Positions 4,545-27,478 of a DNA stretch of 32,000 bases are shown in pieces (the stretch's first letter is position 1; each line of letters starts with the position of its first letter). The DNA is taken from positions 870,001 through 902,000 of the forward strand of contig NC_002677.1 of the NCBI RefSeq assembly GCF_000195855.1, given 5' to 3'. The notes beneath the pieces were generated by a model. It saw only the letters and a program-made list of their open reading frames with translations, made no database searches and had not been told where the DNA came from. Origin of the DNA: Mycobacterium leprae TN (lineage in GTDB: Bacteria > Actinomycetota > Actinomycetes > Mycobacteriales > Mycobacteriaceae). Made by a program: the position numbers and the translations under genes.

Positions 4545-4577
4545 TTTCATCCGGGGCGCCGCTTGCGTTGGGATAGG

Positions 4578-4617
4578 CGTTTTGCAGGTATTCTCTATAG
4601 ATTTTCTTTGCAAAACG
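4578..4617 (+). terminator. Intergenic stem-loop (9-bp stem, 22-nt AT-rich loop) between birA and the next gene; terminator or regulatory hairpin candidate
   Basis: cgttttgca (4578-4586) pairs with tgcaaaacg (4609-4617). Lies 34 nt after the birA stop and 60 nt before the ATG at 4677. No U-tract follows. Confidence 0.3.
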
Positions 4618-4676
4618 TCAATCTCGACGATTCCACCTCAGACGAACTTGTGACCAAGCCCGCTAATGTCGCGGCT

Positions 4677-5195
4677 ATGAGGTATCCGGGTAATACCTTG
4701 GTTGCTGGCGAGCAGGTGGTTTTGCATCGCCATCCGCACTGGAAGCGTTTGATTTGGCCTGCTGTGGTACTTATCTTGGCGACCGGGCTGGTCTCGTTTG
4801 GTTCCGGGTATGTTAACTCGACGCACTGGGCGCAGGTCGCCAAGAACGTGATCTACGGTGTCCTCTGGGGCGTCTGGCTGGTGATCGTCGGTTGGCTCAC
4901 GTTGTGGCCGTTCCTTAATTGGCTCACCACACATTTCGTCGTAACTAACCGGAGGGTGATGTTTCGGCAAGGGACGCTAACCCGCAGCGGGGTCGACATT
5001 CCTTTGGCGCGCATCAACAGCGTAGAGTTCCGCGACCGGCTTTTCGAGCGAATGTTCCGCACCGGAACACTGATTATCGAATCCGCGTCACAAGATCCAG
5101 TGGAATTCTACAACATTCCGCGCCTGCGCCAGATGTACGCGTTGTTGTATCACGAGGTTTTCGACACCCTTGGCTCCGAAGAGTCGCCCAGCTGA
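4677..5195 (+). CDS. Membrane protein with bacterial PH (bPH_2/YdbS-like) domain, Rv3278c-like
   Basis: Starting at ATG 4677 gives 172 aa, the length I recall for Rv3278c. Two predicted TM helices (LIWPAVVLILATGLV, VLWGVWLVIVGWL) are followed by the FVVTNRRV...INSVEF PH-like module. The ORF-track start at 4563 is probably too long. Confidence 0.75.
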   Translation: MRYPGNTLVAGEQVVLHRHPHWKRLIWPAVVLILATGLVSFGSGYVNSTHWAQVAKNVIYGVLWGVWLVIVGWLTLWPFLNWLTTHFVVTNRRVMFRQGTLTRSGVDIPLARINSVEFRDRLFERMFRTGTLIIESASQDPVEFYNIPRLRQMYALLYHEVFDTLGSEESPS

Positions 5196-5836
5196 GACGC
5201 GGGACTCAAATCCAGGCGGCGGGAGCGATTGCGCCAGGCACGCAACAGGGCATCGCCGAAGTCTTCGAAGACGCCATCGATGGCGTCTTCGAAGACTTCG
5301 GCGATGCCGCCCGCAGTGAGGGCAGATTCCAGCGTCTTTTCGGGGTTGCGGGCGAACGCGTCGGGAAACACCCAGCGCCGGAATGCCCAGAAACGAAACG
5401 CCATCTGTAGCAGATTGCCGATGATGTAGGCTGATAGGAAGTCGGCGAGGTTTTCAACGGTTAGTGACACCGTGGGCGCGCGCAGTTGCAGGACATAGCT
5501 CGAGAACCACAGCGGTGCCATGCTTAGCAGCACCCCTATGCCACTGAAGGCGAAAAACAGCAGCGCCTCATTATGGCGCTCGCGGCCGCCACGGTCCCGA
5601 AAGCTCCATTCCCTGTTTAACACGTAGGATGCGATAACAGCGACGATGCCGGCGACGACCTTGGCGGTCACCGGTTTGGGCTCGAGAATCGTCAGTTTGA
5701 GGGTGTAGAAAATTGCTGAATCAATGATGAATGTGGTGCCGCCGACGATGGCAAATTTAATGAGTTCGTGGTAGCGCTGCGCATACGGCTGCAGTACTGT
5801 GGGCAAGCGCGTGATCGTGGCATCGGGAAAAGACAC
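5150..5836 (-). CDS. GtrA-family integral membrane protein (Rv3277-like)
   Basis: 228-aa ORF with a GTG start. GtrA-like N-terminus KFAIVGGTTFIIDSAIFY and four hydrophobic segments. Its 3' end overlaps the convergent gene by 46 nt (5150-5195). The C-terminal tail contains the 60-bp palindrome. Confidence 0.8.
   Translation of the reverse strand: MSFPDATITRLPTVLQPYAQRYHELIKFAIVGGTTFIIDSAIFYTLKLTILEPKPVTAKVVAGIVAVIASYVLNREWSFRDRGGRERHNEALLFFAFSGIGVLLSMAPLWFSSYVLQLRAPTVSLTVENLADFLSAYIIGNLLQMAFRFWAFRRWVFPDAFARNPEKTLESALTAGGIAEVFEDAIDGVFEDFGDALLRAWRNRSRRLDLSPASQLGDSSEPRVSKTS
5249..5308. repeat. Perfect 60-bp palindrome (30-bp arms, no spacer) with nested 12-bp palindromes
   Basis: All 30 pairs were checked base by base around the centre atc|gat (5278/5279). 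Structure: ggcatcgccgaa-gtcttcgaagac-gccatcgatggc-gtcttcgaagac-ttcggcgatgcc. It encodes GIAEVFEDAIDGVFEDFGDA identically on both strands. Confidence 0.97.
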
Positions 5837-9022: not shown

Positions 9023-9113
9023 TCCGGGGTGCGTTGGGCCGGCGAAATCGCTTGCTCGACAAGCAGTCACCACTAGGGCGAACATGTGCAACCCTGTGGC
9101 GTCACAACCGGGG

Positions 9114-9545
9114 TTACCCATCGTTAGTCTTGAACTGCCGGCTAGCTTGTCCGATGCTGGCATGTGTCGCGCTGGCTGACCGGTTGGCCACGGGTTCTGA
9201 TAAAATAGTAAGACGGTACGGTACTGGGCTGTAGTGCTTGCACGGGTCTATGGTTAGCGGTGTAACCGCGATTCGGTCGTGTAGATCCCAGCCAACAGGT
9301 TCCCCCATACTACCTACCAGTACGATCCTGAAAGCCACGACAACGGTACCGATGATGACGTTGCTCAGGCTACCGCAGTCGCCCTGTGCCCAGTACTCTA
9401 CCAGTAGTACAAATACTGTAAAAGCACGGTTGACAACTCCGATCAGCATTCAGAACGTTGCGGGCGATGGTGATCGTTAACCGTAGCACTGCTTGCTTTG
9501 GGCGTGTCTTTCCCAGGATATCAGATGCCTCGTCCCACTGGTTAG
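9114..9545 (-). pseudogene. pstA2: Truncated remnant of a phosphate ABC permease gene (pstA2-like)
   Basis: Hydrophobic fragments in shifting frames. They include a degenerate permease loop (...ILGKTRPKQAVLRLTITIARNVLNAD, resembling LP.A.pGi.tG..LaiARa.GETA) that sits only about 30 codons after the pstC1 remnant ends. This implies a large N-terminal deletion. Position matches the Mtb order pstS1-pstC1-pstA2. Confidence 0.4.
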
Positions 9546-11758: not shown

Positions 11759-12588
11759 TTATCTGGTACCGAGGAGCCTGCGGTCGCTGAATAGCCCGGA
11801 GATGTACCAGAACGTTTCGGCATGTTTGGGTTACAGGAACAGTTGTTCGGTGGGTCCTTACGCGATCAGTCTGACGTAGAAAATGATGCCGTACGGTGAC
11901 CAATTTGAGTGGTCTGACTTTGATCATGGGTCACCATGATCAAAGTCAGACCGGTTGGCCAGTGACCGAATGGGCTACTCGATCTTTTCGGTCATGGTCG
12001 GGTCCAGCGAAGAAGTGGGCTTTTCAAGCAACACCACTTCCGGCCCCACCGCAAGTGCACGGACCGGACACAACAACTGCTGCTGACCGCCGGAAAGCCG
12101 GAACGGCGAATCACCTAGCTGCTCCTTGACCGCATCCCAGAGCCCCACTTCGGCCAGTCGAGCTTAAGTAATGCTTATGAATTTTTGCGCGACACCATCT
12201 TTTGTTAGCGTGCACGTTGGCAACCATGTTGTCCATGATCGACTTGGGAAACGGATTGGGACGCTGGAACGGCATGCCGACTAGGCTGCGAAACTCCAAC
12301 AGGTCGCCGCTGTTGAAGATGTTTTGTCCGCCTAGCAGGACGTCATCGCTGTACCGGTATCCAGATACCTTTGTCATTCATTCGCTTCAGAGTGCGTAGC
12401 ACAGTTGTCTTCCCTGAGCCGGTCGGCTCCAGCAAGGACGTAACCGCGCGGGAGGGAAAATCCAGGCTCACTTAGTCGAGCACGGTTTTGGCGGCGAAAT
12501 TCAACGTTAGATTCACCGCAGCCATGACAAGTGGAGCAGCATTAGTTTTCGGGGTACCGATTTGGGTGCCGAGCTGTTCAGGACTCAT
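11759..12588 (-). pseudogene. pstB: Phosphate ABC transporter ATPase pseudogene (pstB)
   Basis: From ATG 12588 the sequence reads MSPEQLGT...MAAVNLTLNFAAKTVLD, followed by an in-frame TAA (12472-12474). A degraded Walker A follows ([11 protein letters not shown]), then VGMPFQRPNPFPKSIMDN in another frame, the ABC signature LSGGQQQ, Walker B VVLLEKPTSSLD, and a broken C-terminus. Confidence 0.85.
11911..11952. repeat. Perfect 19-bp-stem / 4-nt-loop inverted repeat inside the pstB pseudogene
   Basis: ggtctgactttgatcatgg (11911-11929), gtca loop, ccatgatcaaagtcagacc (11934-11952). Checked base by base. Confidence 0.97.
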
Positions 12589-12883: not shown

Positions 12884-13985
12884 GCGAAGTTCACCTGCTC
12901 TGGCGCTGCGCTGCGTCTGTTGGCCGCCACCGTGCTGGTGTTATCAGCGTGGCGGGGGCAACATCGCCAACACCTCGTCATCTGGATCCTGCACCCCGTC
13001 GGTGCCGGTGCACTGCGGCGGCATGAAAGCAGCTTAAGGACGCCGGCTCGTCCGCCCAAGAGAACGCTATGGAACAATTTCCCTATTTTATATCTGGGCG
13101 TTCCTGGGCTGCACGTTGGACTACAACAACGCAAACGGCTCCGGCAGTGGGGTTACGGAGTGCATCAATAGCGAAACCGATATGGCGGGGTCTGACGTGC
13201 CGTTCGATCCATTGATAGGTAAACCCCAGATCGCGGCGGCGCGCTGCGGTTTGCCGGCGTGGGACCTGCCGACGGTGTTTGGCCCGAGCGCGGTCATCTA
13301 TCACATTAACGGCGTAACTTCGTTGAAGATAGACGGGCCCGCCACGGCAAAGATCTCCAATGGCACCTTCACCACGTGGAACGACCCGGCGATCACCGCG
13401 CTCAACGGGGCACCCCGCTCCCGTCTGATACCTAGCCACGTCATCTTCCGCACCGACAAGTTCGGAACCACATATAATTTACCTCGATTCCGCATCCAAT
13501 GGTCCGTGAGGCAAGGGGGTCGGCGAGACGTTCAATGGGGGTGCCGGCGCAGCGGGGAACAGTAGCACGTCGGCGGCCCCTGCAGAGCATCGACGGGTCG
13601 ATCGCCTACACCGGATGATCGTTTGCGGTAGGCAAGCAGTTGGATATGGCCCAGATCATCACGTCAGAGGGTCCGGATCCGATCTCGATTACTATCGACT
13701 CCGTCGGCAAGACCGTTGCACGGGCCAGGATCCTGGGGCAGGGTGATGACTTGGTGTTTGAACACGTAATCCGTTCTACGAGCCAGCGCGGTATAGTGCG
13801 TACCTGATTACGCCGGCGATCTGTGAGATCTTCTACTTGAAGTATCTGGATTTGGCCACCGGCACTGCGGTGAAAGTGTTTATTTAGTTACCAATTTGGT
13901 ATGGATTAGACTCTATAATAGGGCGATTCCATTGCCGAGTTCGTTCCAATCTAACCTGGCGGCAGCGGTGAATGCTATCGCATAA
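12884..13985 (+). pseudogene. pstS2: Periplasmic phosphate-binding lipoprotein pseudogene (pstS2-like)
   Basis: A signal-peptide remnant AKFTCSGAALRLLAATVLVLSA has GCG where the start codon should be. Next come VHCGG..., LDYNNANGSGSGVTECINSETDMAGSDVP, WDLPTVFGPSAVIYHINGV, TWNDPAITALN and a C-terminal NLAAAVNAIA-stop (13983-13985). These are spread over several frames with stops between them. Confidence 0.8.
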
Positions 13986-26631: not shown

Positions 26632-27478
26632 GTCGGTGGGCTAGACGACGATCGGTGCCTGGGGGAAGTCTTCATTGGTAGTGAAGCGGTCGATGCCGGT
26701 GCGCTGAATGACTACCTGCTACGCAGGTGGTGCCGGACGATCTTTCGTGACGTTTACATACCGCAGTGGGACGAGAGGATCGCATTTGTATTTTGTGGAA
26801 CCTTGCTGTGGTCGCGCCGGCAGGCGGCCGATCGCAAGTGTTTTAGCATGGGCGTTTGCATGGTGCACAGTGGGTTGGCGCAGACACGACGATTGAATTC
26901 GTCACAAACAGCGCCCGGACCTAGCGTGGACTGATCGTTCGCAACGAATTGCTCGACGCCGATGAAGCGAGCACCATCAGGCGGCTTCCAGTCACCGGGG
27001 TTGCCCCCACACCGCTTTCGACCTCGACCGCCCATGTGGCACGCATGAGCGCGACTCCACTCGCTCATGCGTGCCACATCGTTCGCTTTCGAATATTGGC
27101 AAAACGACACCGCGGTGCTCGTGAAGTGCAAAGGCCAGCGGAGGTGCTGCCCTTAGTGGACAGTGGCGTGGCCTCGCCGAAGGCAAGCTGGTTGTGGTTG
27201 TTTCTTATTGACGCCGGTATATCGAAACCAACTACTTAGATTCCGGTTTACGACGATTGGTGACTTATTCGGTGTCTTAGAAATGGGTTGGGAGGATTAC
27301 TTGGTCGCTGCGGAGTATAACGGCAACCAACACCGCACCGACCGAAAGTAACATCTCAAGGAGATCAGGCGATTGGCGAAGTTTGCTGACCTAGGCTGGA
27401 TTGTGATCCGTGTGATCGCCGAGGACAAGCGACGACGTCCTCAACCGCGTCCTTCAAGCGTTGGTTCGCCGTGGCTAA
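26632..27478 (+). pseudogene. DUF559 / Vsr-like endonuclease-domain protein pseudogene
   Basis: The N-terminal part GEVFIGSEAVDAGALNDYLLRRWCRTIFRDVYIPQ runs into a stop. The C-terminal part reads MGWEDYLVAAEYNGNQHRTDRK-stop-HLKEIRRLAKFADLGWIVIRVIAED, followed by DDVLNRVLQALVRRG-stop (27476-27478) in another frame. This architecture is typical of actinobacterial endonuclease-domain (DUF559) proteins. No usable start codon was found. Confidence 0.6.

Follow-up and report, generated by a model that had tools for sequence, protein, structure and literature searches.

A perfect 60-bp palindrome within a GtrA-family gene of Mycobacterium leprae, very probably the scar of a single template switch

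Perfect hairpins can be created in a single step by template switching (PMC8794818), and in bacteria imperfect inverted repeats are corrected in a way that is consistent with the same process (PMC5941160, PMC7202029). In yeast genes template switching has been described to rewrite up to five adjacent codons (PMC8604942), and an intermolecular switch of the leading strand has been reported as well (Rosche et al. 1997, as cited in PMC7202029). Here we describe a spacer-less perfect palindrome of 60 bp at positions 5249-5308 of a 32,000-nt stretch of the Mycobacterium leprae TN chromosome (NC_002677.1, positions 870,001 to 902,000 of the forward strand; hereafter the window), which lies in frame within the gene of a GtrA-family membrane protein. 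From its comparison with orthologous genes it is very probable that this palindrome is a lineage-specific mutational scar of one template-switch event, most likely without a selected function. The mechanism itself is known; this instance of it appears to be undescribed, and no earlier description of the palindrome was found in the searchable literature. The gene, the two arms and the elements inside them are as follows.

5150..5836, minus strand: GtrA-family membrane protein gene, 228 aa (ML0734 / JK2ML_0734; PF04138 GtrA_DPMS_TM, E=6e-23)
5249-5278 / 5279-5308: the two arms of the palindrome, 30 nt each, 100% complementary, spacer 0 nt
5279..5308, minus strand: template arm, ancestral, GGC ATC GCC GAA GTC TTC GAA GAC GCC ATC (GIAEVFEDAI)
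5249..5278, minus strand: derived arm, GAT GGC GTC TTC GAA GAC TTC GGC GAT GCC (DGVFEDFGDA), exact reverse complement of 5279-5308
5261-5272 and 5285-5296: 12-mer GTCTTCGAAGAC, present twice
5285..5296: the ancestral 12-bp palindrome GTCTTCGAAGAC, V-F-E-D codons (GTC TTC GAA GAC) that are mutual reverse complements
5261..5272: the second GTCTTCGAAGAC, product of the inverted copy
5273-5284: central 12-mer GCCATCGATGGC
5277..5278: inner junction at the symmetry centre, GA (gene orientation) common to the old and the new sequence, possible switch point
5249..5250: outer junction, CC (gene orientation) common to the old and the new sequence, possible return point

The sequence of 5249-5308 reads GGCATCGCCGAAGTCTTCGAAGACGCCATC followed by GATGGCGTCTTCGAAGACTTCGGCGATGCC, with the centre of symmetry between the two. 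All 30 of the 30 pairs match, as found by a repeat tool and by an independent script, and the pairing ends at G5248/G5309, the first non-pair, exactly where the first-pass annotation of this DNA had placed it. Within the window the runner-up among the spacer-less perfect palindromes has arms of only 9 bp and the next-best hairpins have arms of 19 and 18 nt; as all of these are shorter, a chance origin can be excluded, in agreement with the negligible expectation given in that annotation. In the minus-strand open reading frame (ORF) 5150..5836 the palindrome takes up exactly 20 codons in frame and encodes residues 177-196 (GIAEVFEDAIDGVFEDFGDA). It had also been pointed out that the opposite strand encodes the same peptide, which is true and automatic for in-frame palindromes, and no ORF of at least 50 aa is listed in that plus-strand frame.

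We compared the locus with a set of at least 80 Mycobacterium loci (the matches listed) together with M. lepromatosis and three further relatives, about 85 orthologues overall. P0003/L086 is probably the orthologue of the M. tuberculosis complex (Rv3277), judging from its length of 272 aa. The arm at 5279-5308 turned out to be the old one. Its peptide GIAEVFEDAI sits in a strongly conserved block (LESALTAGGIAEVFED), as seen in both the protein alignment and the codon listing, the peptide and its codons are kept in M. lepromatosis and in 80 Mycobacterium loci among the matches listed, and not a single M. leprae-derived substitution is found in it. In the derived arm, 9 of the 10 residues differ from M. 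lepromatosis, with DGVFEDFGDA-LLRAWRN in M. leprae compared to ESSLADSNVT-LLRAWRN in its relative at the same site. Other species have E-G-G-(F/L)-E-D-(G/S)-N-V-T or the shorter E-G-G-N-V-T there, and the linker following FED varies between species. The ancestral peptide that was replaced in M. leprae can be written E-G/S-G/S-L/F-E/A-D-S/G-N-V-T. The motif [NT]VT, found in 80 of the 81 orthologue loci (among the matches listed), is lost in M. leprae. In a comparison of the 120 protein clusters closest to it, DGVFEDFGDA, with FGDA replacing [NT]VT, proved to be restricted to M. leprae.

Complementarity between the two 30-nt segments amounts to 6-18/30 in the 85 orthologues and reaches 30/30 solely in M. 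leprae. Species with the long linker of 10 codons show 14-18/30 complementary positions (10-14/18 in the inner 18 nt) compared to about 7.5/30 expected by chance, M. lepromatosis having 14/30, and in these species the E-G-G-F/L-E-D codons are partly complementary to the V-F-E-D-A-I codons. The question whether the palindrome is ancestral or newly perfected, for which the first-pass annotation had proposed such a comparison, is thus decided: it was newly perfected in M. leprae. The nested 12-mers mentioned there are correctly located but are not separate features, as they follow from an inverted copy of the ancestral VFED codons. GTCTTCGAAGAC is present in the conserved arm of M. lepromatosis too, and in 5 of 81 orthologue loci in total (among the matches listed), and its second occurrence, the central 12-mer and an apparent 24-nt direct repeat all arise because a self-complementary 12-mer was copied inverted.

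At the DNA level the GtrA genes of M. leprae and M. lepromatosis are both 687 nt long and can be aligned without gaps, with 52 differences and conserved flanks on both sides of the tract. The derived arm holds 15 differences in its 30 nt compared to 37 in the 657 nt elsewhere (Fisher p=1.3e-10), and the altered bases are all located within 5251-5276. Each of the 15 changed bases is complementary to the base that it faces in the conserved arm, for which the chance is (1/3)^15 = 7e-8, while the 15 bases that had been complementary before were left unaltered, pairing thereby going up from 14/30 as in M. lepromatosis to 30/30. Across 9.7 kb of M. leprae/M. lepromatosis alignment the derived arm is the densest substitution cluster, and it matches the adjacent reverse complement at 26/26 positions (30/30 with the shared bases), compared to 15-17/30 at best for the other dense clusters. 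Polarisation with three outgroups identified nine changes as securely derived in M. leprae (5251-5253, 5256, 5257, 5259, 5260, 5271 and 5276) and assigned four to M. lepromatosis (5261, 5270, 5272 and 5275), the remaining ones being ambiguous. Nine derived changes stand against 0.97 expected (Poisson p=8e-7), and the chance that all nine are complementary is (1/3)^9 = 5e-5. As the sites assigned to M. lepromatosis could also be ancestral and then overwritten, the event changed 9 to 15 bases. The copy was thus made from the template arm into the derived arm, with clustered changes, exact complementarity and unchanged length, and it is restricted to the M. leprae lineage.

The protein encoded by the GtrA gene shows 100% identity to M. 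leprae JK2ML_0734. Elsewhere in the gene 36 codons are different in M. lepromatosis, and the amino acid is altered in only 10 of these 36. Judged from its codons, the gene is thus intact, with purifying selection acting on it outside the tract, and is therefore probably functional. The ORF remained open across the tract because there is no stop among the reverse-complement codons. An AlphaFold model built from a 35-sequence alignment was too poor (mean pLDDT 47.6, tail <50) to tell helix from disorder in the replaced segment and was not used.

As the cause of this pattern we infer a strand switch of the polymerase, as well as the strand on which it took place. A single switch would have occurred after the split of M. 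leprae and M. lepromatosis, perhaps in the course of repair synthesis or else at a replication fork. Instead of copying the 26-30 nt at 5249-5278, as it was due to do, a DNA polymerase would have taken 5279-5308 from the wrong strand and would then have resumed, leaving about 30 bases overwritten by the reverse complement of the neighbouring 30 with frame and length unchanged. In this way an ancestral weak-to-moderate quasi-palindrome would have been perfected and extended outward by 12 nt into the NVT codons, and nine residues of the C-terminal tail would have been swapped, the near-invariant N-V-T motif included. Hairpin-templated copying had been one of the possibilities named in the first-pass annotation and is the one favoured by the orthologues, with one arm being ancestral and the other having arisen in M. 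leprae as a reverse-complement copy of it. The site was probably predisposed to such an event because the codons after ...VFEDAI (EGG(F/L)ED in relatives) match in part the reverse complement of the codons before them, and the 2-nt sequences shared at the two junctions may have acted as microhomology. An inversion can be excluded because the conserved arm kept its place, and an insertion because the gene length is unchanged.

The GC skew is positive on the plus strand over the entire window (1-32000), and the M. leprae gene numbering presumably rises with the window coordinate, as the tag 0734 and the numbers of the neighbouring genes suggest. This makes the plus strand the probable leading strand, with the GtrA gene probably oriented head-on to the replication fork. 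The palindrome could then have formed by either of two routes. The nascent leading strand at about 5249 might have jumped to the lagging-strand template at 5308, copied to the centre and resumed, which would be the intermolecular type cited in PMC7202029, or the nascent lagging strand, with the conserved arm already made, might have templated the next 30 nt on itself or on the opposite parental strand. The spacer of 0 nt favours an interstrand U-turn or a multi-step history, as a simple intrastrand snap-back needs a loop. Once formed, the palindrome may have persisted because the ORF stayed open, because it fell partly into a linker of variable length and because the lineage is clonal with a small population.

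Some points weigh against this account. A simple snap-back within one strand, looped in the normal way, could not have left a spacer of 0 nt, and the date and the manner of the switch are read from its outcome in the sequence. Furthermore, 4-6 of the 15 positions may have changed on the M. lepromatosis branch instead. Finally, no decay of the palindrome is seen. If the event were as old as the species split, its 60 bp should have taken up about 1.9 substitutions; with P(0)=0.145 their absence fits neutrality and would fit maintenance as well. A scan of about 19 kb of aligned M. leprae and M. lepromatosis sequence revealed some hairpins with paired changes but no second event of the size of this template switch. 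The second-densest cluster, 9296-9325, was considered as a templated one and rejected, as its reverse complement fails to explain it and it looks like pseudogene sequence shifted by an indel.

M. lepromatosis has a perfect 8-bp inverted repeat of its own, CTGCTCTC...GAGAGCAG, which brackets the conserved arm (L081 3512-3566, gene 511-565; window 5271-5325). Relatives have CCGCCCTY...GAGGGCGG at this site, and the C-to-T and the G-to-A of M. lepromatosis form a matched pair. The four changes assigned to M. lepromatosis are clustered as well, with 4 in 15 nt (p about 0.001). A further templated event, smaller than the one in M. leprae, may have taken place at this hotspot. We also considered CCGCCCTY...GAGGGCGG as a conserved outer RNA stem and rejected it, as its pairing ranges from 1 to 8 of 8 across the orthologues and its bases belong to Ala-Leu and Glu-Gly codons.

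The convergent neighbour of the GtrA gene is as follows.

4563..5195, plus strand: bPH_2 gene (bacterial PH domain), convergent to the GtrA gene, TGA at 5193-5195

In other assemblies a 172-aa form of the bPH protein is called, for which the start would be ATG 4677. The 3' ends of the bPH and GtrA genes overlap by 46 nt (5150-5195), and the same 46-nt convergent overlap is present in M. lepromatosis (L081) and in the relatives L086, L087 and L088. The overlapped C-terminus of the GtrA protein (QLGDSSEPRVSKTS) is nearly invariant across the Mycobacterium relatives examined, as expected from a dual-coding constraint. The stop of the bPH_2 gene and the palindrome are separated by 53 nt; the first-pass annotation had described these surroundings well, namely the in-frame position in the C-terminal tail of the GtrA-like gene, the overlap and the short distance to the bPH stop. 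When folded as RNA the palindrome reaches -71.7 and -70.6 kcal/mol on the two strands (z=-10.2 and -11.0), while the orthologous RNA of M. lepromatosis is unremarkable (z=-0.14 and +0.05). As a DNA hairpin it has a single-strand energy of -38.8 kcal/mol (z=-12.7), compared to -7.1 for the M. lepromatosis segment. According to these predictions both transcripts that cross the palindrome can fold into a stem of 28 bp and a cruciform can form in the DNA, as side effects of the copying.

The strongest competitor of a single switch, which we nevertheless consider unlikely, is templating in several steps: a fold-back on the inner quasi-palindrome (VFEDAI facing EGGFED) with a 12-nt outward extension, the 2-3 inner mismatches being fixed separately by repeated homogenisation of the arms. 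The inner part is already 10-14/18 complementary in the relatives with the 10-codon linker, 7 of the 9 securely derived changes are located in the outer 12 nt (5251-5260), the spacer-less centre is awkward for one intrastrand snap-back, and the paired change of M. lepromatosis in the flanking 8-bp inverted repeat suggests a recurrently active site. However, at least two rare events would be required where one interstrand switch is sufficient, and an intermediate form is absent from all sequences examined. That independent point substitutions, neutral or selected, gradually built up the complementarity has practically no probability. Apart from the species-variable linker after FED nothing specific speaks for it, and 9-15 substitutions in 26 nt would each have had to hit the sole complementary base (probability 5e-5 to 7e-8), leaving the already-paired bases and the other arm untouched on a branch whose rate predicts about one change. 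An inserted palindromic repeat (REP- or MITE-like) or foreign DNA is suggested by the palindromic shape alone, but the length is the same as in M. lepromatosis, one arm is ancestral coding sequence and no further copies of the 12-mer are present elsewhere in the window; we give this origin next to no credence. The 60-mer and the derived 24-mer had no match in a metagenome collection, which is uninformative because this collection would hardly contain M. leprae. The first-pass annotation had also named an artefact of assembly, and a fold-back chimera at the centre with its ClaI site, or a sequencing error, might be considered. Assemblers are misled by palindromes, and the short-read contig L089 reverses exactly at this place. 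An artefact is nevertheless extremely improbable. The two flanks differ from each other, are both colinear with M. lepromatosis and keep the length; another M. leprae assembly (L084) has the same DNA throughout the GtrA gene, the exact protein has been deposited from four genomes that were sequenced separately (CAC30243, CAR70828, BBC16737 and OAR21753), and the 60-mer is present at 752-811 of L089 itself, which derives from independent short reads (Logan, SRR10570921). Beyond the palindrome this contig continues as its own reverse complement (232 nt, 100% identity), resulting in a chimeric 229-aa 'protein' (P0122); the chimera is caused by the palindrome and is not its source.

A quite different interpretation, to which we assign a low probability, is a functional hairpin kept by selection, be it a bidirectional terminator, a 3'-end stabiliser, an RNase III-type site for ML0733/ML0734, a cruciform or a protein-binding site. 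The stem is predicted to be extremely stable on both strands (about -71 kcal/mol, z about -10), it is placed 53 nt beyond the stop of the convergent gene, the overlapping genes offer no intergenic room for a terminator, and there is zero decay against about 1.9 possible substitutions. Yet the hairpin is missing from M. lepromatosis and about 85 other orthologues, while the relatives examined share the overlapping arrangement, and the absence of decay is not significant (P=0.145). A U-rich tract of 7-9 nt directly behind the hairpin is wanting as well, the tail being 1/9 T on the plus strand (GCCCGCAGT) and 4/9 T on the minus strand (CTGTTGCGT), and mycobacterial RNA polymerase, which requires a U-tract for termination at hairpins, does not terminate without it (PMC3993855). 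The terminator or RNA 3'-end role proposed in the first-pass annotation is therefore not supported, and neither is a role in protein binding or cruciform formation, as nothing comparable exists in the relatives and 60 bp far exceed the need of any dimeric binding site. A terminator/promoter scan reported nothing at the palindrome and Rfam 15 gave no match at gathering thresholds, the sub-threshold matches being generic long hairpins such as a plant miRNA precursor (37 bits vs a threshold of 105). A later co-option of the palindrome for a function is similarly improbable; the 28-bp stem would then define or stabilise the 3' ends of the ML0733/ML0734 transcripts or provide a site for a double-strand RNase in them, and a regulatory hairpin would have been born inside a coding sequence by a single mutational step. 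Alternatively, and with as little probability, this locus together with the paired-change hairpins nearby would point to template switching being unusually active in the decaying genomes of M. leprae and M. lepromatosis. A single template switch that left a scar most likely without a selected function thus stays the best explanation.

Some observations were made on related sequences in the collections that we used. The second member of the cluster to which the chimeric protein belongs, P0121, ends in the peptide EIGRAHV, the translation of an Illumina adapter. In a large protein collection the M. leprae protein is found in intact form solely from finished NCBI genomes, and the palindrome-free orthologue of M. 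lepromatosis is present in about 30 contigs, of which many come from assemblies of short reads. The restriction of the former to finished genomes may be due to the palindrome turning short-read contigs back.

Several other inverted repeats are present in the window or in the corresponding sequence of M. lepromatosis. At 11911-11952, in a region without long ORFs, there is a perfect hairpin whose arms measure 19 nt and whose loop measures 4 nt (GGTCTGACTTTGATCATGG gtca CCATGATCAAAGTCAGACC); it has no Rfam match and is single-copy within the window. M. lepromatosis also has a perfect 19+19 hairpin at this site, in which two bases of the outer stem are swapped complementarily in both arms (GT/AC -> AC/GT) and the loop is CGAC, a 3/4 match to the reverse complement of the M. 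leprae loop. This could be either a functional stem with a compensatory change or the product of a template switch or spacer inversion. At 4573-4622, in the intergenic region of birA and bPH, M. leprae has about 50 nt that are missing in M. lepromatosis. They are A+T-rich and hold the palindrome TCTATAGA as well as an inverted repeat, CGTTTTGCA(N22)TGCAAAACG; the flanks of this piece, near the birA end and near the bPH start, are a few nt apart in other mycobacteria. At about 9075-9115 (L085 reverse complement, about 13939-13981) an inverted repeat with arms of 17 nt, ACCATGCGCAACCCGGT(N9)ACCGGGTTGCGCATGGT, is perfect in M. lepromatosis but no longer so in M. leprae, with three differences per arm. 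One more perfect inverted repeat is found at 27034-27079 (ATGTGGCACGCATGAGCG ... CGCTCATGCGTGCCACAT), where arms of 18 nt are separated by 10 nt.

The locus does not represent a new biological system, but it is an unusually clean and large natural example of a template switch, in which a comparison with about 85 relatives reveals template, product and ancestral state alike, and might be used as a teaching or benchmark case. It indicates that long perfect stems can arise in a single step without selection, that a peptide encoded antisense can be grafted onto the tail of a protein and be tolerated, and that a 60-bp palindrome is able to persist in a mycobacterial chromosome. As template-switch events mimic bursts of adaptive amino-acid change they can mislead tests for positive selection. 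The locus calls for caution in selection scans as well as in short-read assembly.

Among the described systems, quasipalindrome mutation (Ripley model; E. coli lacZ quasipalindrome (QP) reporters, PMC7202029) shares with our locus that an imperfect repeat, in M. leprae a probable one, is made perfect, with one arm templating the other and several changes appearing together. The M. leprae case differs from these reporters in being natural and fixed, in comprising 26-30 nt and 9-15 base changes without a spacer, and in having the repeat extended well past the pre-existing complementarity. The four-point short-range template switches (PMC8794818, PMC7954356) also give an exact adjacent reverse complement, a mutation cluster and a perfect stem in one step, but they were described in rRNA genes and primate genomes, whereas here a bacterial coding gene is concerned and the inner switch points coincide (U-turn). 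In coding DNA of S. cerevisiae (PMC8604942) homogenisation of the arms likewise leads to adjacent amino-acid replacements without an adaptive explanation; up to five residues are concerned there, compared to 9 of 10 residues that differ from the sister species and the loss of an invariant motif in M. leprae. The perfect inverted repeats of Proteobacteria (PMC5941160) are similar in that a bacterial repeat, imperfect before (in M. leprae probably so), was turned into a perfect one in accordance with template switching, but they are short and were described statistically, while the M. leprae palindrome is a single actinobacterial case with 30-bp arms and an ancestral state that is visible in about 85 relatives. 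With the intrinsic terminators of mycobacteria (PMC3993855) it has in common a G+C-rich hairpin 3' of a stop between convergent genes, yet it has no U-tract, lies in a translated ORF, is unconserved, has a far longer stem and so falls outside their definition.

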